DNA from: Candidatus Ghiorseimicrobium undicola
GTDB taxonomy: Bacteria; Omnitrophota; Gorgyraeia; Ghiorseimicrobiales; Ghiorseimicrobiaceae
Length of the DNA: 64,000 nt
Assembly (NCBI GenBank): GCA_002796125.1
Contig: PCWA01000084.1
Location: forward strand, 3,238 to 67,237
Direction of reading: 5' to 3'
The translations under genes were made by a program, and so were the position numbers. The notes beneath the pieces were generated by a model. That model did not search any database and was not told the DNA's origin. It worked only from the letters and a program-made list of their open reading frames with translations. Of this stretch, positions 1,463 to 61,479 are shown piece by piece. Position 1 is the first letter of the stretch; each line of letters begins with the position of its first letter.

Positions 1463-2896
1463 TTATCTTTTCTTTATTATATTAAGGACGAATTTTATCA
1501 ACGGATTATCAGCCATAGCTATTAACGGCTTAGCCGCGGTTTTCTTGACAATCTCAGAAAGCGTCGGGTATATAAAAAGTACTTCTGCTATCTTGGATAG
1601 CTTTATGTTGAAGGATTTGGCAATAAGCAGGCCTTGCATAATCTCAGAAGCAGAACTGCCTGTAATATGGGCGCCTAATATGTATCCTTTTTTATCGGTT
1701 ATAATTTTAATCAAGCCGTTTTTTTCCGAGTCCGTAACCGCGCGGTCCGATACGCCGTATTCAGATTTATATATTTTGATACCGCGGTATTTTTTTTGCG
1801 CCTCTTCTTGTATCAAGCCTAAATGCGCAACCTCAGGATCTGTAAATGTTGCCCATACAATATTATCATAGCTTACTCTCTGCCAGGCGATGCGCCTAAA
1901 AAGCGCGTTACGCACGCATATACCCGCCTGATAAGCCGCCACATGGCTGAATTGATAAGGGCCTGCTATATCGCCGCAGGCAAAAATATTTTTATTGGTT
2001 GTCTGAAGGTATTTATTTACAATCAGGCCTTTTTTGTCATGCTTAACATTGGCCTTGTCTAAAGATAATCCTTCTAAATTAGGGGCCCGGCCCACGGCTA
2101 CTAAAATATTTTCCGCAGATATTTCCTCTCTCCTCCCATCACCACTCTCAATAATAACCGTGACTAAGTTATCCTTTTTATATACTTTTACCGCCTTTTT
2201 ACCTGCCAATATTTCTACACCTTCTTGCTTCAAAGAATTTTCTAAAACTGACGCTATCTCTTTATCTTCGCGGAATAATATCCTCTCCAGCATTTCGACA
2301 ACATGTACTTTAACCCCTAACCTGTTTAAGGCCTGAGATAGCTCGATACCAATCGGCCCACCTCCCAAAACTATCAGGCTTTTCGGCAAAACATCCAAAT
2401 CAAAGATATTCTCGTTGGTAAGATATCCTGCCTTATCCAGCCCTTCTATCGGCGGTATAGCAGGATGGGAACCAGTGCAGATTATAAATTTTTTAGCGCT
2501 AAATTTTTGATTATTAACTTCAACGGTATTTTGATTTATGAATTTCACAGGCCCAATAACTACCTTAATCCCTCTTTTCTCAAAGAGCTCATTAGGGTGA
2601 TGTGTGGACACCTCATGGACTATATCCCGTACGTGCGGCATAACCCCTGCCGTATCCAATTTTATACCCTTAGATAAATTCAGCCCGAATAATTCAAACC
2701 TATTGATTAAATTAGCCACATGCGCTGACTTAAGGAGTGCCTTGGAGGGTACACAGCCAAACCAGGTGCAGTCTCCGCCAAGCCTGGTTTTTTCAATAAG
2801 GCAGGCTTTGGCTCCGAGGGCGCTGGCAACGCTTACGGCGAATAAACCTCCTGCCCCGCCGCCGATAACTATAATATCAAAATTTTCATGGCGCAT
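1463..2896 (-). CDS. Pyridine nucleotide-disulfide oxidoreductase (dihydrolipoamide dehydrogenase / mercuric reductase-like flavoprotein)
   Basis: 477 aa; N-terminal FAD fold IIVIGGGAGG; redox-active CTWFGCVPSK (Cx4C); C-terminal dimerisation domain. Confidence 0.75.
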   Translation of the reverse strand: MRHENFDIIVIGGGAGGLFAVSVASALGAKACLIEKTRLGGDCTWFGCVPSKALLKSAHVANLINRFELFGLNLSKGIKLDTAGVMPHVRDIVHEVSTHHPNELFEKRGIKVVIGPVKFINQNTVEVNNQKFSAKKFIICTGSHPAIPPIEGLDKAGYLTNENIFDLDVLPKSLIVLGGGPIGIELSQALNRLGVKVHVVEMLERILFREDKEIASVLENSLKQEGVEILAGKKAVKVYKKDNLVTVIIESGDGRREEISAENILVAVGRAPNLEGLSLDKANVKHDKKGLIVNKYLQTTNKNIFACGDIAGPYQFSHVAAYQAGICVRNALFRRIAWQRVSYDNIVWATFTDPEVAHLGLIQEEAQKKYRGIKIYKSEYGVSDRAVTDSEKNGLIKIITDKKGYILGAHITGSSASEIMQGLLIAKSFNIKLSKIAEVLFIYPTLSEIVKKTAAKPLIAMADNPLIKFVLNIIKKR

Positions 2897-2908
2897 TATT
2901 GATTCTTA

Positions 2909-4048
2909 TTAGTTTGCTATTACGCACAGCCGCTCTTTCTTCGCCTCAATCGCGCTTAAGAGCGCGTCAAAGGATTTTTCAAATGCGGCCAGGCCGCCTC
3001 TAAGCAAATCAGCGCACACATCATTTATTCCGATACCTGCCTTCTCCAGAGCGCTGATTATATTATCGGCACAGAAAACATCAGAAGTCAATGCTTCTTT
3101 AACACTGCCGTGCCCTAAAAACGCTTCCAGTGTATTCTGCGGCAGAGTATTTACCGTATTTTTGGCAATAAGCTCTATTACGTATTTGATGTCGCGATAA
3201 GCAGGGTTTTTGGTACTGGTAGAGGCCCATAAAACTCTTTGCGGGTTAGCGCCCTTGAGAGAGATATTTTTAAATTGCGCGGAAGAGAATATTTCAGAAT
3301 AATTTTTATAAATAAACGCGCAATTTGAAACCGCTGCCTTACCCTTAAGCTTTAGTAAATTATCCTTATCACTCCCGGCAGGCTTATCTCTTGCTAATTC
3401 GTCTAACCTGTCATCAATAACTGTATCAATACGGCTGACAAAACAGGAAGCAACAGAGCGTATCTTGTTTGCGTCTGAATTGCTCTTTAAGTATCTATTT
3501 ATGCCCCTGATATAAGCGTTGGCAGTATTCACATATTGCTTAAGTGAAAATATAAGCGTTGCGTTAACATTCATTCCGCAGGCAGTCAATTCTTCAATTG
3601 CGCTAAAACCTTCTTCGGTAGCAGGAACCTTTAACATTAAATTTGGCCGGGCGACTTCTCTCTGCAGTCTTTTCCCCTCTTCTATGGTCTGGCCTTTATC
3701 ATATGCCAATTTAGGATTGATTTCCAAGCTGACATACCCGTCAAGGCCTCCTGTATCTTTAAAAACAGGCATAAAGATATCCGCCGCATCCCGGATATCT
3801 TGAATAGTTAAACAATCATAAATCTCAAAAGCCGACTTGCCTGACCTGCAAAGATTATAGATCGCCTGATCATAGTCGCTTCCTGAATTTATGGCTTTTT
3901 CAAAGATCGCCGGGTTGGAAGTTAATCCCCTTAGCCCTAAGCCGATTAATTCCTCTAATTTCTTAGTCTCAATTAAAGAGCGGCTTATATAATCAAGCCA
4001 GGCGCTTTGGCCAAAATTTGCCAGTTGCGTAATTTTTGTATTATCCAT
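2909..4048 (-). CDS. tal: Transaldolase (long actinobacterial-type)
   Basis: 379 aa; LMLKVPATEEG active-site region and overall transaldolase architecture. Confidence 0.75.
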   Translation of the reverse strand: MDNTKITQLANFGQSAWLDYISRSLIETKKLEELIGLGLRGLTSNPAIFEKAINSGSDYDQAIYNLCRSGKSAFEIYDCLTIQDIRDAADIFMPVFKDTGGLDGYVSLEINPKLAYDKGQTIEEGKRLQREVARPNLMLKVPATEEGFSAIEELTACGMNVNATLIFSLKQYVNTANAYIRGINRYLKSNSDANKIRSVASCFVSRIDTVIDDRLDELARDKPAGSDKDNLLKLKGKAAVSNCAFIYKNYSEIFSSAQFKNISLKGANPQRVLWASTSTKNPAYRDIKYVIELIAKNTVNTLPQNTLEAFLGHGSVKEALTSDVFCADNIISALEKAGIGINDVCADLLRGGLAAFEKSFDALLSAIEAKKERLCVIAN

Positions 4049-4078
4049 TTCATCCTTCCTTTCAGATTTTTTGTTTTT

Positions 4079-4750
4079 CTATCTTAAATCATAATAAAAT
4101 TTCTTTAAGGCAACAGTAGAAAAACCTAAGATAAAACCCAGGCCTAACAGCCAGTTTATAAAGGTGGTTTTTAATATGCCCTGGCGTTCCCAGCGCCTGG
4201 GCGAAGAAAAAACCCTTTTATTCAAAAGGCATAACCTCCCCTGCCTTTTGAGTTTTCTCGAAAATAAAACATCCTCAAATAAATCCACCTTGTCAAAACC
4301 GCCGAGTTTTAAAAAAATATCCTTGCGCACAAAAACAGCCTGATCGCCATAAAATATTTTAAAAATCCCTGCCCGTAGGTTACCGGAAGACTCTATTAAC
4401 CGGTAAATAAGCTTACCAGAATTTATGCGCTGGGAAAAAGCCCCGCCGATAAAACCTTTAGCAATAGCCCGTTCGGCCGCCTCCAGTGCGCCAGCTTCCA
4501 ATGCACAATCAGCATGTAGGAATAATAATATCTCGCCTTGAGCAGACTCTCCACCTTTATTCATCTGCCCGGCCCTGTTCTTTTCTGATTTTATTATTGC
4601 AACGGGATAGGCGCCGGCAATTTTAATAGTATTATCGGGGCTTCCTCCATCTACCACAATAACTTCTATGTTCTTGTTTAATGAAATATTTTCGAGAACT
4701 GCTTTTGTGGCTGCTTCTTCATTGTATGTGGGAATAATAATGGAAATCAT
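4079..4750 (-). CDS. Family 2 glycosyltransferase (small, C-terminal membrane anchor)
   Basis: 223 aa; N-terminal MISIIIPTYNEE GT-A motif, DGGSPD, C-terminal hydrophobic segment. Confidence 0.65.
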   Translation of the reverse strand: MISIIIPTYNEEAATKAVLENISLNKNIEVIVVDGGSPDNTIKIAGAYPVAIIKSEKNRAGQMNKGGESAQGEILLFLHADCALEAGALEAAERAIAKGFIGGAFSQRINSGKLIYRLIESSGNLRAGIFKIFYGDQAVFVRKDIFLKLGGFDKVDLFEDVLFSRKLKRQGRLCLLNKRVFSSPRRWERQGILKTTFINWLLGLGFILGFSTVALKKFYYDLR

Positions 4751-10516: not shown

Positions 10517-10529
10517 AATATTTTCAGCA

Positions 10530-10564
10530 ATTACACAAAACAAGCATTGCTTGTTTTGTGTAAT
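10530..10564 (-). repeat. 35-bp perfect palindrome between the hypothetical gene stop and the leuA start
   Basis: attacacaaaacaagca t tgcttgttttgtgtaat. A related copy lies upstream of metK. Confidence 0.6.
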
Positions 10565-10569
10565 TTTGA

Positions 10570-12501
10570 TTATAACCCTTCAACCGGGGTAAAAAAATCA
10601 AATTCGAAAAAACCATCCTCATACATGGAACTGGCGCCCATAACATTAACATCTTTTAAAACATTTAACACATCAACAGCATTCCGCATGTTTTTCCTGA
10701 TTTCTTTTTCTTTTAAATTATTCGCAAGAGAATTATTCATTGAACTAAATATTGCTATCATCGGCTCAATGTATTGCTTGGGATTAATATAAAAAAGCCC
10801 GTTAAACTCAGGATGCAATTTTGTTCTAATCTGGGAAAATTTTACGCTATCTACCAGGCTTAATAATTTCTTATTATACACGTTTATTATTTTTCTCAGA
10901 AGCGGTTGATTAGTACCTACTATCAAATAGTTGCCCAGGAAACAGTATGAGGGAGATAAAACATCATCGCTAAACATAGCCGGTAAAGTACCGGTATTCT
11001 GCATTTTTAACCCATGTATGCTAATGCCAGAATAGTCATCAACCGTATAAATAAGCATATCCGGAACTTTTTGTTCTTCTGTATCCGGCCCCGCCCCCTC
11101 CTGCACGGCCGGTAATTTTTGTTCCCTTGGCTTTGCCTGGCCACCCGCCTGAAGTTTCGCCTGGGCATTGGCTAAATCAGCTATTCTTTGCCAAAGTCCA
11201 GACAATAAAACATCTATCTTATCTTTGTCTTTTGTATCCGCATAAACAAATAATTCCGGAAAATTTAAATTAATCGGCCCGGCCCTGCCTTGCTCTAGCG
11301 CAAGCGGTATACTTATGGCTTTAAACCCGGCTAAAGTAAAACCGTAATCTTTCCCTAAAAAAGGCAAGAAATCATTTTCCAAATCAAAACCCAGGAATGA
11401 ATTCAATTGCTCAATAATCTTATCCGGGCTATACTCCTGCGCATTAATTTTTTCATTACTTGCGGCCTTATTAAGCACCGCCCCATTAATGACGCCTGAC
11501 ATACTCTTTTTAAAATAGGCAAACAATGATTTCGCCTGGCCGTAATTTCCTCCGGAAAATAAAGCAACATCTAAAGGGATAAATTTTAACGCCTCCAGAT
11601 TAGCATCGTTTATGCCTTCCCAAATAGTTTTTATCTCCGGGTCCTCTATGCTCTCGAGATCTAGATAAGCCCAGCCTTTTAAATAAATACCCTCATTAAA
11701 ATCAACCGTTAAAAAATAATTCTTAAACGGCGTGAGTTTCTCCTGAGCTTTATATATGGCTTTCATGTCCTGGCTTAAGTTTTTTGCCAGCTGATAAAAT
11801 TTACTCACATCATAATATAGCCATGCGCGCCAGCTGCCGGAAAACCTGCTTTTAACTCTTAAAAATCCTGGATCGCTGGAAATACTACCCTCAGAATCTG
11901 CGCCTATTAAATCTATGGCTTTTTCCAGCCTGCCCCTGGCATTACTTATTATAAGCACATCGCCTATGATGGAATAGGCAAACTCATGCCGTAAACCTTC
12001 ATGCTTAACAATAGAAACATCGAAACCTTTATATTTATTCCTTGTAATTAGTTTATCCTTCTGAATTTTGGAATTAATCTTTGCCAGCGACTCTTTAAGC
12101 GCAACCGAATTATCTATCCTGCTTAAGAGAACGATATCAACATCCGGCCTTTCAAACTTGGTATCTTCAGAATATACAGATAAAAAAACCTCCTTGCCTA
12201 AAACATCCATCAGGTCTTTTTCGCTAAGCCAATTTGCCTGCTCCTTTATTTTCCCAAAAGTATCATTATCCTTAAACATAAGAAGCTGCGCCAGGCCGGA
12301 GTAAACATCCGTGCCTTTTATCTTATCCCAGGAGCTTTTTAAATCATCCGCGGCAACATATATCAATCCTCCCGAAGGAGCTAAATCGGCAAGATTTTCC
12401 ACCTGAACCGGCGGCTTGGATAAACGCAGATAATAAAAAGCGGCTGTTAAAATTATAATAACGCCGCCGAGCAAAATGATAAGCTTTTTATTATTTCTCA
12501 T
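10570..12501 (-). CDS. Large hypothetical secreted/membrane-anchored protein (possibly DUF3352-like)
   Basis: 643 aa; N-terminal signal-anchor LIILLGGVIIILTAAFYYL; no catalytic motifs. Inserted between ilvC and leuA. Confidence 0.45.
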   Translation of the reverse strand: MRNNKKLIILLGGVIIILTAAFYYLRLSKPPVQVENLADLAPSGGLIYVAADDLKSSWDKIKGTDVYSGLAQLLMFKDNDTFGKIKEQANWLSEKDLMDVLGKEVFLSVYSEDTKFERPDVDIVLLSRIDNSVALKESLAKINSKIQKDKLITRNKYKGFDVSIVKHEGLRHEFAYSIIGDVLIISNARGRLEKAIDLIGADSEGSISSDPGFLRVKSRFSGSWRAWLYYDVSKFYQLAKNLSQDMKAIYKAQEKLTPFKNYFLTVDFNEGIYLKGWAYLDLESIEDPEIKTIWEGINDANLEALKFIPLDVALFSGGNYGQAKSLFAYFKKSMSGVINGAVLNKAASNEKINAQEYSPDKIIEQLNSFLGFDLENDFLPFLGKDYGFTLAGFKAISIPLALEQGRAGPINLNFPELFVYADTKDKDKIDVLLSGLWQRIADLANAQAKLQAGGQAKPREQKLPAVQEGAGPDTEEQKVPDMLIYTVDDYSGISIHGLKMQNTGTLPAMFSDDVLSPSYCFLGNYLIVGTNQPLLRKIINVYNKKLLSLVDSVKFSQIRTKLHPEFNGLFYINPKQYIEPMIAIFSSMNNSLANNLKEKEIRKNMRNAVDVLNVLKDVNVMGASSMYEDGFFEFDFFTPVEGL

Positions 12502-12552
12502 AGCCGTTCTCCTTATTCAGGCGAGGGAATCTAACGTTTCATCCAAGGCATC

Positions 12553-12647
12553 CAATTCGGCCGTAAAGGCCGAATTGTCCCGCAGCCTATCAGGGTAAAT
12601 TTCAAAGAAATTTACCCTGATGTTTAGGCAAGGGAATTTAGTGATTT
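12553..12647 (-). repeat. 5'-leader element, truncated variant copy D (leader of the 643-aa hypothetical gene), flanked by a 12-bp direct repeat
   Basis: Minus strand attcccttgcctaaacatcagggtaaatttctttgaaatttaccctgataggctgcgggacaattcggcctttacggccgaatt. The direct repeat atccaaggcatc occurs at 12541-12552 and 12648-12659. Confidence 0.7.
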
Positions 12648-13633
12648 ATCCAAGGCATCATCTCCCTCAGCCTCTTACCTACCTCCTCTATCGGGTGTTT
12701 ATCGCCCTCTTCCATCAATTTATTAAACAATGGCCTGCCCTGTTCGTTCTCATTAATCCACTCGCGGGCAAATTTACCGTTTTTAATTTCGCGAAGCATC
12801 TTCTGCATTTCTTTTCTCGTCTTTTGAGTTATTATTCTCGGTCCTCTGGTTAAATCCCCATAACATGCAGTGTTTGAAACACGCCTACGCATGCCTGATA
12901 TGCCGGTTTCCTGAATTAAATCAGTAATTAATTTTAATTCATGCAAAACTTCAAAATAGGCGATTTCCGGCTGATATCCCGCCTCTATCAAAGTATCAAA
13001 ACCTGCTTTGATAAGCTCGGTTACGCCGCCGCATAAAACCGCCTGTTCGCCGAAAAGATCCGTTTCTGTTTCTTCGTCAAATGTTGTTTCTATTACCCCC
13101 GCCTTTGTACCTTTTATTGCCTTGGCGTAAGCAAGCGCAACCGCTTTGGCATTACCGCTTGCATCCTGATGAATAGCCAAAAGGCATGGCACGCCCTTGT
13201 CTTCCTCATACATCCGCCTGACCAATGCACCCGGGCCTTTAGGCGCCACCATAATCACATCTACTTTTTTAGGCGGTTTAATCTGCTTAAAACGAATATT
13301 GAAACCGTGGGAAAAAACCAAAACTTTTCCTTTTTTAAGATAAGGCTTGATGGATTCGTTATAAACTTTTGCCTGGAGATGATCTTGAGTCAAAACCTGT
13401 ATAATATCCGCTTTTATTGCCGCCTCTTGAGCAGATACCGGGCTAAACCCGTCTTCTTCTGCCTGTTTAAAATTTTGCGTACCGGAAAGTTCAGAAACCA
13501 CCACATTAATACCGCTGTCGCGAAGGCACAGGCTCTGGCCCCTGCCCTGAATTCCGTAGCCGATAATCGCCACTGTCTTATCTTTTAATAAATTTAAATC
13601 CGCATCATTATCGTAGTAGATTTTTAAAGCCAT
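12638..13633 (-). CDS. ilvC: Ketol-acid reductoisomerase
   Basis: 331 aa; [17 protein letters not shown] Rossmann region and C-terminal KARI domain. Confidence 0.9.
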
Positions 13634-15811: not shown

Positions 15812-15926
15812 AATGAGCCCACAACTTACGGAGGCGAAGCCGACGTAAGTTGTATGGGCGAATTAATCCCGCAGCCTATCGGGTAAATATCGAAGAGATT
15901 TACCCGATGCTTAGGCAAGGGATATT
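15812..15926 (-). repeat. 5'-leader structured repeat element, copy A (between ilvD stop and ilvB start)
   Basis: Minus strand atcccttgcctaagcatcgggtaaatctcttcgatatttacccgataggctgcgggattaattcgcccatacaacttacgtcggcttcgcctccgtaagttgtgggctcatt, followed by aaaATG of ilvB. Confidence 0.8.
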
Positions 15927-17579: not shown

Positions 17580-17712
17580 ATTTTTGCTCCTTAATCATCC
17601 CGCTTTCAACAGAAAGCCTAACTTACTCCTGGCGTAAACGCTTGTAGATTTCTTCTCGTAAGAGAAGAAATCTACTGCGCGCGCTTCGGAGCTAATCCCG
17701 CCTTCGGCGGGA

Positions 17713-19023
17713 TTAATCCGCCCCTGATGCGTCTATCTCTCCGGAATGAGAGTTGATATCCGGCTTTATATATACGGGCTTAATATATCTTTCGATAAGA
17801 TCTTTGCTGCCTGCAATGTTGAGCTTTTTAAATAAAAATTCAAATTTTTCTTCCAGCTCTTTCCCTATTCTTTCAAGTATATCATCGCCGAGATTCGTAA
17901 GTTCTTTTTTAAATGGCCCAAGCGCTTTTTTACGCGTTTTGTAAATAAATTGGTCTTCTGTTTCTGTCTCTTTTTTCTCAGACGCCAGATTCTCCTTAAG
18001 CCATGAATATATCTTATCTCTTAGACTTGCCGGAAAATGCCTGCTTTCAAAAATCATGTTCTGGAACTGAGTTGCTAAATGCACTTCCAGAGTCTCAACC
18101 TCCGGGAATTTACCAAAAGCATCGTCAGGCAAAGTTGATGCCCCGTGCTGTACCGCCCCGCCCATGCCGTATTTTGCGCGCGCGAGTTCCGATAGAGTTC
18201 TTAACGTTTCAAAATCAAGTTTAACCTTGGCGATACTGCCGTCAGGCAAAACCACCCCTCCGTGCGAAGTACCTGTCTGAACGCTTACCTTGCTAATGCC
18301 ATCAAGCCTGCCTGTCAACTCGTTATAACCAGACATAAAAGCTTCTAATTCTTCCGGGGTAGAGTTTGCGGTCCCTACTTCGCCTATCTCTCCTCCTATT
18401 GATACGGTAACACCCTTTGGCTGTATGCTCCGGATATATTTGGTAAGTTCAGCACACGACTCATAATTTAAGTGCTGTTCTTCTTTTTTATCCGGCTTGC
18501 TTAAATCTACCAAAGTAGAAGAATCTATGTCTATATTATAAAAACCTGAATCAACGGCTTCTTTGATTAACAGCTTAAGGCCATCTAATTCTTTTTTGGG
18601 GTTTTCTTTGTATTTTTTGGGATTTACTTGGGTATGGTCTGCCTGCACGAATATAGGCCCTCTATAACCCTCTTTTACGGCAGCGGCTAAACAAACCCCG
18701 CAATATTCTACCGGGCGCTGATCAGTATAGCCCATTTCGGATTTGGCAATTTCAAATATAAAAGCTCCGGCATTATTTTTCTTGGCGACCCTGATAATCG
18801 CACGCGCCAAAATATAAGTTAAGCCGCGTAGATTAATCGCCGGGACGGTAAATCCTGAAAATTCATTTCTGCCTCGCGCTTTATAAAAATCATGGATAGA
18901 AGCCGGATAAACCCCGGCATCTTTGGCCGCCTGCCAAATTTTTAAAAAATAATCTTTCTTTTTATTTATATCACCTTCTAAAATCAGATTTTTTACCAAA
19001 ACATCGATATTGTTACCTGCCAC
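17713..19023 (-). CDS. fba: Class II fructose-bisphosphate aldolase (long form)
   Basis: 436 aa; VQADHTQ and GTSHGGV class II aldolase motifs; GTG start preceded by GAGGAGG. Confidence 0.75.
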   Translation of the reverse strand: MAGNNIDVLVKNLILEGDINKKKDYFLKIWQAAKDAGVYPASIHDFYKARGRNEFSGFTVPAINLRGLTYILARAIIRVAKKNNAGAFIFEIAKSEMGYTDQRPVEYCGVCLAAAVKEGYRGPIFVQADHTQVNPKKYKENPKKELDGLKLLIKEAVDSGFYNIDIDSSTLVDLSKPDKKEEQHLNYESCAELTKYIRSIQPKGVTVSIGGEIGEVGTANSTPEELEAFMSGYNELTGRLDGISKVSVQTGTSHGGVVLPDGSIAKVKLDFETLRTLSELARAKYGMGGAVQHGASTLPDDAFGKFPEVETLEVHLATQFQNMIFESRHFPASLRDKIYSWLKENLASEKKETETEDQFIYKTRKKALGPFKKELTNLGDDILERIGKELEEKFEFLFKKLNIAGSKDLIERYIKPVYIKPDINSHSGEIDASGAD

Positions 19024-19037
19024 CTTAATACCTCCTC

Positions 19038-19160
19038 AATGAGCGCATAACTTACGGAAGCTCTGAAAGAGCGACGTAAGTTATTTGCGCGAATTGATCC
19101 CGCAGCCTATCGGGTAAATTTCGAATAAATTTACCCGATGCTTAGGCAAGGGATATATTT
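19038..19160 (-). repeat. 5'-leader structured repeat element, copy B (fba leader)
   Basis: Minus strand atcccttgcctaagcatcgggtaaatttattcgaaatttacccgataggctgcgggatcaattcgcgcaaataacttacgtcgctctttcagagcttccgtaagttatgcgctcatt, followed by gaggaggtattaaGGTG of fba. Confidence 0.8.
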
Positions 19161-19221
19161 TACAACTCAATGAGCACATCCGCCACAGGCGGATGAGTAC
19201 GAATTGATCTTCATTAATTAT

Positions 19222-20208
19222 TCAAGTTAGTATATTTATCAGACGGTAAAAATTATCTACTTTTAAATCCTTTTTCTTAATTGCCTCTCTAACCGGTATA
19301 ACGTTTATTTCACCGTTAACTATTCCCGCGGCCTTGTCATATTGGTTGTTGAGCAATAGATCTACCGCGGCAGAGCCAAGCCGGGTGGCTAAAATCCTGT
19401 CTTTAGCCGTAGGTATCCCGCCTCTCTGTATATGCCCCAATACCACCACGCGGGTTTCAAGCCTGGTAATCTTAGTGATTTTTGCTGCTATTGCCTGCGC
19501 CTTCGCCGCGCCTTCGGCCACAATGATTATCCAGCTTATCTTTCCCTTTAACCTTCCTTTTTTAATACGTTCACAGATTTTCCTAAGATCAAACTTCAGC
19601 TCGGGGACTAAAACATCTTCAGCGCCTCCGCCCAGAGCGGATTCTATGGCGATAAACCCGCAATCCCTACCCATGACTTCTATAACAAAAATCCGCTCCA
19701 TGGAAGTACAGGTATCGCGTATCTTATCTATCGCATCAAGGGCAGTGTTAACTGCTGTATCAGAACCAATAGTCGCATCCGTCCCCCTGATATCATTATC
19801 AATCGTTCCGGGAATGCAGGCGCAGGGGACTTTCCATTCGGAAAATAAAAGATGCGCGCCGTGATAAGAACCATTGCCGCCAATAACAACCAGCGCGTCT
19901 ATGCCATGCCTTTTTACAGTCGCGGCTGCTTTTTTTCTTCCTTCCCTAGTAAAGAACTCTTTGCATCTTGCGGTTTTTAAAAGCGTACCGCCCTTATTTA
20001 TAACATTAGATACCGAACGATGACTTAAAGAGATAATGTCATCGTCAATCAAGCCCTGATAGCCGCGCATAATACCGGCCACTTCCAACCCGTTATGCGA
20101 TGCATAACGCACCACGCTCCTTATTGCGGCATTCATGCCAGAGCCATCGCCGCCGGAAGTCAAAACCCCTATTTTTTTAATAGGCGTTTTTAATTTTGAA
20201 TTTTTCAT
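19222..20208 (-). CDS. pfkA: ATP-dependent 6-phosphofructokinase
   Basis: 328 aa; GVLTSGGDGSGMNAAIR, IGGNGS and GxxDND motifs. Confidence 0.85.
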   Translation of the reverse strand: MKNSKLKTPIKKIGVLTSGGDGSGMNAAIRSVVRYASHNGLEVAGIMRGYQGLIDDDIISLSHRSVSNVINKGGTLLKTARCKEFFTREGRKKAAATVKRHGIDALVVIGGNGSYHGAHLLFSEWKVPCACIPGTIDNDIRGTDATIGSDTAVNTALDAIDKIRDTCTSMERIFVIEVMGRDCGFIAIESALGGGAEDVLVPELKFDLRKICERIKKGRLKGKISWIIIVAEGAAKAQAIAAKITKITRLETRVVVLGHIQRGGIPTAKDRILATRLGSAAVDLLLNNQYDKAAGIVNGEINVIPVREAIKKKDLKVDNFYRLINILT

Positions 20209-22795: not shown

Positions 22796-22830
22796 ATTAC
22801 ACATTTTAAGCAATGCTTGTTTTGTGTAAT
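22796..22830 (-). repeat. Related imperfect palindrome between the nucleotidyltransferase stop and the metK start
   Basis: attacacattttaagca a tgcttgttttgtgtaat. The right arm is identical to that of the 10530-10564 copy. Confidence 0.55.
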
Positions 22831-22838
22831 TTTACTTG

Positions 22839-26503: not shown

Positions 26504-26600
26504 GTAGGTTACGAACACCCGCCCATTCCATTAAGGGCGGGGTGTAGTAGGTTACGAACACCCGCCCATTCCGCTAAGGGCGGGGTGTACGTAGATTACT
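26504..26600 (-). repeat. Tandem 43-nt GC-stem hairpin repeat (2.2 copies) between yvcK stop and ptsH start
   Basis: gtaggttacgaacacccgcccattccNNtaagggcggggtgta occurs twice in tandem plus a partial third unit. Each unit folds as cacccgccc / gggcggggtg. Confidence 0.7.
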
Positions 26601-28446: not shown

Positions 28447-28519
28447 AGCGGGAGACGGGCTTCGAACCCGCGACAACAACGTTGGCAACGTTGTGCTCTA
28501 CCAACTGAGCTACTCCCGC
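28447..28519 (-). tRNA. tRNA-Gly (anticodon GCC)
   Basis: Minus-strand GCGGGAGTAGCTCAGTTGGTAGAGCACAACGTTGCCAACGTTGTTGTCGCGGGTTCGAAGCCCGTCTCCCGCT. Cloverleaf with GTTCGAAG T-loop; no encoded CCA. Confidence 0.85.
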
Positions 28520-28631
28520 AAATTATTAAAAAGAGAAATTCTGACAAATCAAAAATTTATTGCCACCTAATTTCTAATCTCGATTTTCCAGTAAAATTCG
28601 CCTTAGATTCAATACAGCTTCAACCATCTAA

Positions 28632-28715
28632 TGCCGCGAGAGAGAGTTGAACTCTCAAGTCCTTGCGGACATTAGGTCCTAAGCCTAACGCGTATGCCAA
28701 TTCCGCCACCGCGGC
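28632..28715 (-). tRNA. tRNA-Leu (anticodon TAG), long variable arm
   Basis: Minus-strand GCCGCGGTGGCGGAATTGGCATACGCGTTAGGCTTAGGACCTAATGTCCGCAAGGACTTGAGAGTTCAACTCTCTCTCGCGGCA. The D-arm matches the canonical Leu GGCGGAATTGG; the ORF 28620..28808 is spurious. Confidence 0.8.
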
Positions 28716-28881
28716 AAATTTTTTAAAATCGCGTATGCCAATTCCGCCATCCGCCATTTTGTCAATAGCGCATAACGCATTGAAAATAGAAAATTGAGTA
28801 GACCGCAATTAAACTTATTATCTATTTTTTAATTTCTATTGCTCAATTGCTCTACAAATTTTTGCAGAGCAAAAATTTATG

Positions 28882-28954
28882 TGAGCCACCCGCGACTCGA
28901 ACGCGGCACACCCACCTTAAAAGGGTGGTGCTCTACCGGATGAGCTAGTGGCTC
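28882..28954 (-). tRNA. tRNA-Lys (anticodon TTT)
   Basis: Minus-strand GAGCCACTAGCTCATCCGGTAGAGCACCACCCTTTTAAGGTGGGTGTGCCGCGTTCGAGTCGCGGGTGGCTCA. Confidence 0.85.
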
Positions 28955-42712: not shown

Positions 42713-42962
42713 CAAAAAAAAATCCCGAAGATTCTCTTCGGGATTAAACAAATAAAGCTCTCTAAAATATTCCTCTGGCTTATGCCAAACCGATGGCTTT
42801 ATCTTCTCTCATCTAGACTTTACTATTGGCTCTGGAATCGCACCAGCTCTGTCCTGCTTTTTTAGCAAGACTCGTAGGCTTTCATCCGGCGTTAAAGGAA
42901 GCGCCGATGTGCGCATGCTGCGCAACTACCAGTCGGGAATTACACCCTGCCCCGAAGATTCA
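42713..42962 (-). promoter_or_regulatory. FMN riboswitch (RFN element) with intrinsic terminator, controlling the ribBA operon
   Basis: The minus-strand leader reads ...TCTTCGGGGCAGGGTGTAATTCCCGACTGGTAGT...GCCAATAGTAAAGTCTAGATGAGAGAAGATAA, a match to the conserved FMN aptamer core. It is followed by the hairpin AATCCCGAAGAGAATCTTCGGGATT plus T9 (42713-42745), then GAGG and the ribBA ATG. Confidence 0.85.
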
Positions 42963-42965
42963 ATA

Positions 42966-55215: not shown

Positions 55216-55244
55216 GTTACAAATAAAATTAACAATATAATTGT

Positions 55245-55356
55245 ATCCCTTGCCTAAACATCGGGTAAATCTCTTCGATATTTACCCGATAGGCTGCGGG
55301 ATTAATTCGGCCATAAAACTTACGTCGGCTCCGCCTCCGTAAGTTGTGGCCTCATT
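55245..55356 (+). repeat. 5'-leader structured repeat element, copy C (rpmB leader)
   Basis: atcccttgcctaaacatcgggtaaatctcttcgatatttacccgataggctgcgggattaattcggccataaaacttacgtcggctccgcctccgtaagttgtggcctcatt, followed by aaaATG of rpmB. Confidence 0.8.
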
Positions 55357-57366: not shown

Positions 57367-57419
57367 CTAAATTTATTTATCCGTTTTATTAGAATAATTT
57401 TGCCGGAGAAATAAATTTA

Positions 57420-57500
57420 CTCCGAAGCCTACGCAGTAAATTTCGAACCCTCTGGAGTTTTTTAAACTTTAGGAAGAAATTTACAAGTGTTTAGGCAAGG
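57420..57500 (-). repeat. Degenerate copy E of the 5'-leader element in the recJ leader
   Basis: Minus strand ..actccttgcctaaacacttgtaaatttcttcc...ttcgaaatttactgcgtaggcttcggagtaaattt. The ccttgcctaaaca start and gtaaat arms are retained. Confidence 0.4.
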
Positions 57501-57664
57501 AGTTAACTTATATCCTCGGCAACAAACCGTCGGAATGATTTTACCCCGTTAGAGATAAACTGCCGTAGGCGGCTGTCTAATAAAGAATAGTTTATTATCG
57601 CCTTTTGCTTTCATAAACTGCTTTTGCCGCAAATTAAACGCCTCACCGCCATCTCTAACGGGGT

Positions 57665-61205: not shown

Positions 61206-61479
61206 GTCAGTTAGACAACACTTGCGCAATACCTTATAAGCGCAAGGTGTATCAGTTAGGCAACACTTGCGCAATTTGCCGATCAGGCAACACCGGCGCA
61301 ATTCCTTTAAGCGCCGGGTGACATATAAGCGCGAGATGTAAAAACCCTCAAGGCACGGCGGCGCAATTTCCCAGCACGGAAACACTGGCGCAATACAATT
61401 AAGCGCCAGGTGTTAATTAAGCGCCGGCCGCCTTATAAGCGCGGGGTGTGTCAGTTAGGCGCTATTTATTTAAGCGCTT
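61206..61479 (-). repeat. Array of 4 or more GC-stem/AT-loop hairpins of identical architecture, between trpA stop and the M16 peptidase start
   Basis: Units of the form cacNNgcgc-aatNNNNNttaa-gcgcN'N'ggtg. Stems are acacttgcgc/gcgcaaggtgt (61218-61250), caccggcgc/gcgccgggtg (61290-61320) and cactggcgc/gcgccaggtgt (61382-61413), plus gcgc-tatttatttaa-gcgc (61459-61477). The direct-repeat heads (g/a)caacacNNgcgcaat occur four times. Confidence 0.7.

Follow-up and report, generated by a model that had tools for sequence, protein, structure and literature searches.

In the genome of Candidatus Ghiorseimicrobium undicola, a short structured element lies directly downstream of ilvC, the gene for ketol-acid reductoisomerase (IlvC), and is bracketed by a perfect 12-bp direct repeat that reaches into the last codons of the gene. 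Is this repeat the target-site duplication of a mobile element, as the original prediction for this locus had it, or the trace of another process? We addressed this question in a stretch of 64,000 nt of contig PCWA01000084.1 (hereafter the window) and in related loci, here designated L with a number. Our data suggest that the element is a copy of an RNA motif of Omnitrophota and that the repeat is a scar left by a duplicative rearrangement, which placed or re-placed this RNA cassette directly after the ilvC stop codon; we put the probability of this reading at roughly 0.55, i.e. slightly better than even.

The 12-mer atccaaggcatc (plus strand) is indeed present in two places, 12541–12552 and 12648–12659, with 95 nt between the copies, and the second copy, read on the minus strand, supplies codons of the ilvC terminus MPWINH-stop. 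A repeat search, however, identified it as the perfect core of a 37-nt imperfect direct repeat (copies A and B, Table 1; 30/37 positions, 81 % identity), whose copies are spaced 107 nt apart. Each copy runs from the sixth-last ilvC codon through the stop codon into the motif, of which it takes in the initial 15 nt with the invariant core. On the coding strand, copy A reads GATGCCTTGGATAAATCACTAAATTCCCTTGCCTAAA and copy B GATGCCTTGGATGAAACGTTAGATTCCCTCGCCTGAA, with ATTCCCTTGCCTAAA and ATTCCCTCGCCTGAA, respectively, as the motif-derived 15 nt, and six of the seven mismatches between them are transitions. Since the repeat includes the element's own invariant core, it is not a target site that merely flanks the element. 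An exact flanking repeat of such length was obtained at this copy in 0 of 300 shuffles, and its local-alignment score was reached by 0 of 400. Moreover, six independent assemblies of this species (ENA, Logan and JGI) have one and the same junction, which is therefore not an assembly artefact.

The upstream copy A is the working end of ilvC (MPWINH-stop), and the downstream copy B is probably an in-frame relic, with a family-typical tail (MPWMKR-stop), located exactly between the second hairpin of the motif (HP2) and the Shine–Dalgarno sequence of the following DUF3352 gene. C-termini of the type MPWM... are found in 200 of 204 IlvC homologues, in which MKK, MRK and MKH are the commonest tails, while MKR occurs in three and INH in the window only. 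Because MKR is family-typical and INH is confined to the window among these homologues, copy A looks, from its sequence, derived, and copy B like an older end of ilvC. The tails in L042 follow the same pattern, i.e. the second copies end in a family- or clade-typical manner (MKR in the window, MRSERK in L042) and the upstream copies carry derived tails (INH and MRTER). When copy B and one further nucleotide are removed, the Shine–Dalgarno sequence comes to lie directly after HP2 (GGCCGAAUU followed by AAGGAG-N6-AUG), which is the canonical layout of motif copies with a short HP2. The junction in copy B, TAG+ATTCCCTCGCC, is similar to the native ilvC–motif junction of L035, TAG+ATTCCTCGTC, and given this resemblance of its motif-like 15-mer, an earlier motif probably stood at the ilvC site. 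The predicted empty allele of the site is ...GAGATGATGCCTTGGATGAAACGTTAGATTCCCTCGCCTGAATAAGGAG.

The element itself is a covarying two-hairpin RNA motif of Omnitrophota, lying between the stop and start codons of many housekeeping genes. Its first hairpin (HP1) has an outer helix that covaries (UCCC/GGGA, CUCC/GGAG, CCCC/GGGG) and inner parts consisting of an invariant GCCUA/UAGGC helix, an A-N-C-A bulge and a distal helix, P2, the sequence of which is free to change while its pairing is kept. HP2 exists in a long form, ending in GCUCAUU followed by a Shine–Dalgarno sequence or ATG, and in a short form, UUAAUUUUGC...GCAAAAUUAA, followed by GGAG. Covariation was strong: 56 cells were changed on both sides versus 18.9 in shuffles, the covariation score was 0.303 versus 0.122 (each observed value being reached by 0 of 500 shuffles), and slid-partner controls stayed at ≤0.147, with 85.6 % of cells paired versus ≤54 % once the partners were slid. 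The core pattern used for the motif scans, CCTTGCCTAANCA-N27-57-TAGGCTNCGG, gave five matches in the window, all sense-oriented (Table 1), against none expected by chance, and 22 loci in species-representative genomes, about 20 of which are Omnitrophota metagenome-assembled genomes of different species; further copies were found with model R1. Copies within and between genomes share subfamilies defined by P2, which is identical in L008 and L012, and the window copies at ilvD>ilvB and rpmB are 95 % identical across 122 nt.

The ilvC copy (12571–12639; 70.2 bits and E = 6e-18 with R1) had been described as having lost P2 and extended P3, which fits it in part. The first hairpin is intact and the second is short (CAATTCGGCC/GGCCGAATTG); the copy is not truncated, the short HP2 being a regular variant elsewhere in Omnitrophota (L007, L011, L016, L020, L025, L026 and L028).

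The genes 3′ of the motif encode the ribosomal proteins L28 (rpmB), L14 (rplN) and S16 (rpsP), IleRS (ileS), GAPDH (gap), FBA (fba), MetK, GlnA, DapA, GyrA, RecJ and IlvB, among others, and in view of this diversity the element is not the leader of branched-chain amino acid (BCAA) genes for which it had been taken. It stands after a stop codon or promoter and before the next start codon, and every copy ahead of a called gene points in the sense direction and directly adjoins the start codon or the Shine–Dalgarno sequence. The two hallmarks of structured cis-acting RNAs in general, i.e. compensatory changes across species and a fixed orientation towards genes, were thus both found. Rfam gave no match to any motif copy, either when the window was searched in full at gathering score or in searches of two sub-regions (E ≤ 10) and of eight related loci, and a literature search for an RNA motif of Omnitrophota returned nothing relevant, its one result being a study in which Rfam had been run. 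Several known systems were considered and rejected. For a T-box, a Leu/ilv leader peptide or a ppGpp riboswitch, no Rfam covariance model matched and no coherent BCAA gene set lies downstream; leader-peptide attenuation is contradicted by the small open reading frame (mini-ORF) of copy B, as MPWMKR contains no Leu, Ile or Val codon. An integron attC site carries RYYYAAC ... GTTRRRY core sites at the hairpin base, whereas the core of the motif is GCCUAA-N-CA ... UAGGCU, with any base before UAGGC (A, G, C or U) and no conserved GTT.

In three loci (L007 5466–5533, L015 3465–3556 and L010 566–643), the motif copy is followed by a convergent tRNA gene and no ORF, and a terminator-like hairpin stands behind the copy at L023 820–887. 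It is possible that the motif exists as a free-standing small RNA, too.

Relatives provide empty sites. L029, L030 and L031 (IlvC 89–90 % identical) and L041 (84 %) have the order ilvC–DUF3352–leuA with a spacer of 65–67 nt, one ilvC end and no motif, which is the outcome of the comparison with related genomes that the original prediction had proposed. In L032, ilvC and leuA are separated by 18 nt without a motif; L034, whose IlvC is 96 % identical to that of L033, and L039 likewise have ilvC–leuA with a single ilvC end and no motif. Filled sites thus stand against empty ones in two groups, i.e. L033, L035 and L038 versus L034 and L039, and the window versus L029, L031 and L041. The 643-aa DUF3352 gene does lie between ilvC and leuA, as described, but was not brought in with the element: since motif-free relatives have it at the same place, it predates the motif here and is independent of it. 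A homologue search with the DUF3352 protein returned only the protein itself, and the relatives were found through IlvC homologues instead. The operons differ in another gene, encoding a protein of about 470–480 aa with GAF and HD domains, which lies between ilvB and ilvN in L029, L031, L034 and L035; L041 has such a gene upstream of ilvN and a second one between ilvN and ilvC, and the operon in the window has none.

The duplication of the ilvC end is recurrent. A second ilvC end after a structured insert was found in six other lineages, and in five of them the insert is this motif. L033 (contig Ga0315286_10000076) was detected by scanning metagenomes for ilvC ends with the motif behind them, and the others by sampling further IlvC contexts. 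In L033, ilvC ends with ATGATGCCATGGATGCGAAAGTAA, followed by a full motif with the tail GCGCTCATTA and directly by ATGATGCCTTGGATGAGGAAATAA; the duplication spans 24 nt (20/24 identical), both copies encode MMPWMRK-stop, and an apparently decayed motif 3′ strand follows before the locus ends, 24 nt past the second copy. The duplication in L038 has the same length and identity (24 nt, 20/24), with a T and then the leuA ATG after the second copy, and that in L035 spans 12 nt (ATGAAGAAGTAA, MKK-stop), with AT and then the leuA ATG. In L042, MMPWMRTER-stop stands against VMPWMRSERK-stop, the repeat extends about 35–45 nt past the stop codon, and the second copy has an extended clade-typical tail, as in L041. 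L036 carries two units of the motif plus MPWMRK-stop in tandem, and L043 a 21-nt duplication (20/21) around a different hairpin element, its second copy also starting at an in-frame ATG. In the five motif cases, the second copy begins at one or other in-frame ATG of the MMPWM tail (GTG in L042) and abuts the motif 3′ tail, which is the place where other motif copies present the start codon of the next gene. The lineage-specific second-copy tails, such as the one L042 shares with L041, suggest independent events instead of one ancient duplication. Comparing L033 with L034, mismatches per 90 nt showed no clear step that would mark a foreign 3′ segment in ilvC.

Two of these loci are unusual in other respects. 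Between ilvC and leuA, L036 (1300–3275) contains a 188-aa ORF, the two tandem units of motif and ilvC tail, a 21-codon leuA 5′ fragment (MDKIIIFDTTLRDGGSLEVER, then a stop codon) and a 62-aa ORF followed by a DUF6036 ORF, so that this junction looks like an insertion hotspot. In L043, the ilvN–ilvC spacer (2677–3003) has three tandem copies of a unit of about 80 nt (GTTAAATATCCGTAGTTTAAGT...), and the 377-nt ilvC–leuA spacer (3994–4370) is a string of hairpins with CCAGAGG loops; these structured intergenic repeats of another Omnitrophota genome form a family distinct from the motif.

How far does the ilvC site represent the motif in general? We tested 33 motif copies for flanking repeats by local alignment against 400 shuffles, and four had a repeat reached by none of these (ilvC and pfk>fba in the window, L019 and L033), most copies having none; L035 did not reach significance here, and its repeat was picked out by reading the sequence. 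The expectation that further flanked copies exist was therefore borne out for only a few. Furthermore, the cases of pfk>fba and L019 are partial elements beside complete ones. Just upstream of the pfk>fba copy, at 19166–19213 (minus strand), there is a partial element without the first hairpin, composed of the linker GATCAATTCG, a different short hairpin (CATCCGCC/GGCGGATG) and the tail GCTCATTGAG, which forms with the tail of the full copy the 14-nt repeat ATGYGCTCATTGAG (0/400 shuffles); L019 has a similar partial copy beside its motif at 2422–2492. A filled and an empty allele can be compared between aroE and pilD, where L034 (empty) reads TGA-GGGAGTAA-AAAATTATG and L035 (filled) TGA-GGAAGTAA-[motif]-GGAGTTAA-AAAATTATG, with an imperfect duplication of about 8 nt. 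An ilvC-like tail upstream of this motif copy was considered as a transported ilvC end and rejected, the comparison with L034 showing it to be the native aroE stop and the pilD Shine–Dalgarno region. Between ilvD and ilvB, the genes overlap as ATGA at empty sites, and no significant duplication was detected at filled ones. Altogether, the duplications measure about 8, 12, 21, 24, 33, 37 and about 70 nt across sites.

In our favoured reading, the downstream copy would be the older ilvC terminus, and the upstream copy would have arrived, or been rebuilt, together with the cassette, by copy-choice or short-homology recombination and not by transposase cutting. The latter does not fit the data, because there are no terminal inverted repeats, the duplication lengths vary and the repeat includes part of the cassette. 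Candidate routes would be a switch of template with the stop codon and an ATG as anchors; integration, with unequal exchange, of a unit that came with its own ilvC-like end; or a duplication in tandem and a later deletion. With its three ATG codons just upstream of the stop codon, the MMPWM tail may make ilvC a recurrent site for such end duplications. The relic would have no necessary function in the window, since the DUF3352 gene has its own Shine–Dalgarno sequence, and it may, at the usual place of the start codon behind a cassette, be translated as a six-codon mini-ORF. It is tempting to go further and to speculate that the element is a mobile cis-acting RNA cassette, or ‘portable leader’, which spreads by copy-and-paste inside Omnitrophota genomes and from one to another, with a stop codon on one side of the landing site and an ATG on the other, and duplicates what these anchors enclose, the ilvC tail recording the events; this wider proposal is tentative, and we would not bet on it.

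Several observations weigh against the scar reading in its simple form. Copy B already holds a motif-like 15-mer, so that a single clean insertion into a naive site is insufficient, and at least two events, or a donor with an ilvC-like end, are needed. The mismatches are spread unevenly along the 37-nt repeat (0/12, 5/10 and 2/15), which simple duplication in situ followed by drift does not predict. An exact empty allele from the species of the window is lacking, and the nearest relatives (IlvC ≤90 % identical) are too diverged for a spacer alignment, so that gain in the lineage of the window and loss in the relatives are not strictly separable. No recombinase, transposase or other mobilizing factor was identified, although none was looked for. 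Finally, every second copy keeps its start codon, frame and stop codon, and the codon differences pooled over the copies (9 synonymous, 6 non-synonymous) are also compatible with a retained function.

A retained function is the core of the most probable alternative, by which the downstream copy is kept as a working mini-ORF that runs from ATG to stop after the cassette tail and passes ribosomes on by termination–reinitiation, or protects the mRNA. Behind the cassette tail, the second copy opens directly with ATG or GTG in all eight cases, the change from ATG to GTG in L042 keeps a start codon, in L033 and in L038 both copies yield one peptide, their differences being confined to synonymous or stop positions, and in L038 and L035 the stop lies 1–2 nt from the leuA ATG. 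In the window, however, the stop is 29 nt upstream of the ATG of the DUF3352 gene, which has its own AAGGAG, and in L043 it is about 280 nt from leuA. Moreover, a ratio of 9:6 is also the expectation for one constrained and one neutral copy, and the intactness of copies that are short and apparently young is weak evidence. We consider this explanation unlikely.

The explanation from which we started, a classical target-site duplication, has a 95-nt non-autonomous transposable element inserted into the ilvC tail, with a staggered transposase cut giving a duplication of exactly 12 bp. In its favour, the element is bracketed by a perfect 12-mer and is present or absent among relatives, and near-identical copies exist inside one genome. 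Variable duplication is not without precedent either, as the direct repeats of IS1634 and IS1549 vary from copy to copy between 8 and 514 bp (PMC2266710). Yet the similarity continues for 25 nt beyond the 12-mer at 18 of 25 positions, with a transition bias, and runs through the invariant core of the element, which a target site would lack. No terminal inverted repeats were found at the element ends, the two internal hairpins being the only inverted repeats within 12500–12680, most of the 33 copies have no flanking repeat, and the copies before called genes are all in sense and abut a start codon or Shine–Dalgarno sequence. Of the features expected of a transposon, filled and empty sites among relatives were found, whereas a duplication of fixed length at most copies was not. 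The view of the 12 bp as a clean target-site duplication thus does not hold for a repeat of 37 nt that takes in the 5′ core of the element and whose counterparts vary from about 8 to about 70 nt, and we regard it as quite improbable. What stands of the suggested insertion footprint is a rearrangement footprint tied to the element, consistent with the empty relatives, the recurrence and the shared subfamilies.

A third possibility, and a very improbable one, is an RNA switch in which copy B (UUCCCUCGCCU) and the ilvC codons AGGCUGAGGGAG (12674–12663) form an 11-bp outer helix or compete with P1, so that translation of the ilvC 3′ end would control folding and the next gene. The minimum-free-energy fold of 12685–12495 (−69.9 kcal/mol) indeed contains exactly this helix, long-range and with both hairpins inside it; the ilvC codons agree with the P1 3′ strand in 10 of 11 positions, and the window has G-ending synonymous codons where L032 has A- or T-ending ones (AGA CTT AGA GAG). 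On the other hand, a 10/11 match is expected about 0.1 times by chance in 180 nt and is not significant alone, so the likeness may be due to chance. In L033 and L038, the codons that immediately precede the ilvC-end repeat are, as read by eye, unlike the P1 3′ strand of their own motif, with no outer helix being sought there; this version is found in one species only, beyond the reach of covariation, and the Shine–Dalgarno sequence is free in either fold. As to a chance match or assembly artefact, for which nothing speaks except the small size of the 12-mer, it is already effectively refuted by the 0/300 and 0/400 shuffles, the agreement of the six assemblies and the same architecture in other lineages.

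Among known systems, the nearest analogue in outcome would be prophage e14 of Escherichia coli, which is flanked by icd and by icdC, a pseudogene consisting of a C-terminal fragment of the gene, and recombination between the two gene ends of this type can remove the insert (PMC13626634). Both there and at ilvC, a second 3′ end keeps the gene intact, and the two ends differ mainly at synonymous positions; the short fragment beyond the insert, in e14 the displaced native end, may be the same at ilvC. In line with this type of replacement, two copies of the 3′ end flank the insert at ilvC and the upstream one completes the gene. In contrast to e14, a 15-kb prophage that uses site-specific recombination, the insert is a structured non-coding RNA of about 95–155 nt, the duplicated segment measures 12–70 nt depending on the lineage, and the element does not code for an integrase or recombinase, the 95 nt between the 12-mers holding two hairpins only. 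The nearest precedent for the variable length of the flanking direct repeats is probably IS1634/IS1549; these elements, however, are 1.5–2 kb long, with inverted ends and a DDE transposase, while the motif has no inverted ends and most of its copies are unflanked.

REP/BIME, ERIC and Correia elements are short, structured, multi-copy sequences that lie between the genes of operons, are transcribed with their neighbours, differ in presence between strains and probably affect the fate of the mRNA. The motif is likewise a short structured unit in many copies between operon genes, present or absent. It differs from them in its invariant core and covarying helices, conserved phylum-wide, in being in sense before every called gene and in the fusion of its 3′ end to the Shine–Dalgarno sequence or start codon of the next gene, and therefore looks more like a portable leader than like a palindromic unit. 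Programmed translational bypass, known from T4 gene 60 and from the ‘byp’ elements in mitochondria of yeast, has matching codons on both sides of a structured, stop-containing gap, as has ilvC; here, however, the upstream copy is already complete with its stop, so that bypass would alter nothing or, in the window, three residues.

The features of the locus and the window copies of the motif are listed in Table 1. The gene order on the minus strand is pfk (19222–20208), the class-II FBA-like gene (17713–19023), ilvD, ilvB, ilvN, ilvC, the DUF3352 gene and leuA. In the ilvC–DUF3352 spacer, no promoter or terminator was found beyond chance, and the short hairpin is no intrinsic terminator; the TTGACA-17-TATACT upstream of the rpmB copy was read by eye, outside the promoter scan.

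Table 1. Coordinates of the ilvC locus features and of the further motif copies in the window (bits, score with model R1).
Feature	Position	Strand	Description
ilvC, ketol-acid reductoisomerase, 331 aa	12638..13633	-	Ends ...MMPWINH-stop; Pfam KARI_N + KARI_C
DUF3352 gene, 643 aa	10570..12501	-	Between ilvC and leuA; position kept in L029, L031 and L041, all without motif
Repeat copy A	12623..12659	-	Last six ilvC codons, TAA stop, ATTCCCTTGCCTAAA = P1 5′ strand; functional copy
Repeat copy B	12516..12552	-	Probable displaced relic; GATGCCTTGGATGAAACGTTAG + ATTCCCTCGCCTGAA, degenerate P1 5′ strand
Mini-ORF in copy B	12531..12551	-	Six codons, ATG CCT TGG ATG AAA CGT TAG = MPWMKR-stop; starts 2 nt after HP2
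Shine–Dalgarno sequence AAGGAG of DUF3352 gene	12509..12514	-	ATG of the gene at 12501–12499
HP1 of ilvC copy	12578..12637	-	P1 CCC..GCCUA / UAGGC...GGG, AACA bulge, 15-bp distal helix P2; fold and inverted repeat
HP2 of ilvC copy, short	12553..12577	-	CAAUUCGGCC-UUUAC-GGCCGAAUUG; fold and inverted repeat
ilvC codons AGGCUGAGGGA	12663..12673	-	R-L-R-E (AGG CTG AGG GAG, 12663–12674); match P1 3′ strand 10/11, complementary to copy B
Motif copy ilvD>ilvB	15859..15926	-	87.2 bits; long HP2 on to 15809
Motif copy pfk > class-II FBA-like gene	19090..19157	-	83.2 bits; motif at same position in the distant relative L026
Motif copy before rpmB (L28, 55360–55590)	55242..55309	+	87.3 bits; after TTGACA-17-TATACT
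Motif copy argS/recJ, diverged	57412..57506	-	63.9 bits; compensatory P1 changes, 29-nt P2 insertion

In the spacer between the FBA-like gene and ilvD, at 17622–17699 (plus strand), there is in addition a diverged motif-like element antisense to the operon (R1 32.2 bits, E ~1e-6), with the core GGCGUAAAC...CGCGCUUCGG and then a short second hairpin. L026 has a counterpart at the same place (1633–1702, 30.7 bits), and the element may be an antisense RNA or a bidirectional structure.

The window contains other repeats as well. The near-perfect palindrome AATTACACAAAACAAGCAATGCTTGTTTTGTGTAATT of 36–38 nt occurs in two copies, 10529–10567 and 22796–22833, one of them between the DUF3352 stop and the leuA start; it represents a second repeated hairpin family and is possibly a terminator. 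At 26504–26589, a 43-nt unit (GTAGGTTACGAACACCCGCCCATTCC..TAAGGGCGGGGTGTA) with a GC-rich hairpin is present twice in tandem (95 % identity), and at 61232–61460 a cluster of related 30–33 nt repeats (TTAAGCGCCGG..., CCTTATAAGCGC..GGTGT.TCAGTTAGGC) overlaps the start of a 482-aa ORF. The sole Rfam matches in the window were an FMN (flavin mononucleotide) riboswitch at 42797–42963 (minus strand, 95.6 bits) and three tRNA genes at 28447–28954 (minus strand).

A phylum-wide structured RNA cassette acquired between stop and start codons, with which the ilvC end has repeatedly been duplicated, appears to be undescribed. The motif is a new RNA to characterize, with a covariance model in hand, and the movement of non-coding cassettes for which no transposase is obvious can be studied at its dated filled and empty sites. 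It would be wrong to take the 12-bp repeat for a transposon target-site duplication, and annotators should be aware that the IlvC C-terminus and the short ORFs after ilvC would be products of cassette turnover. If our reading is correct, an uncultivated phylum of ultra-small bacteria hands a ready-made structured 5′ leader round its housekeeping operons, and the ilvC stop codon would be a natural recorder of these cassette events.

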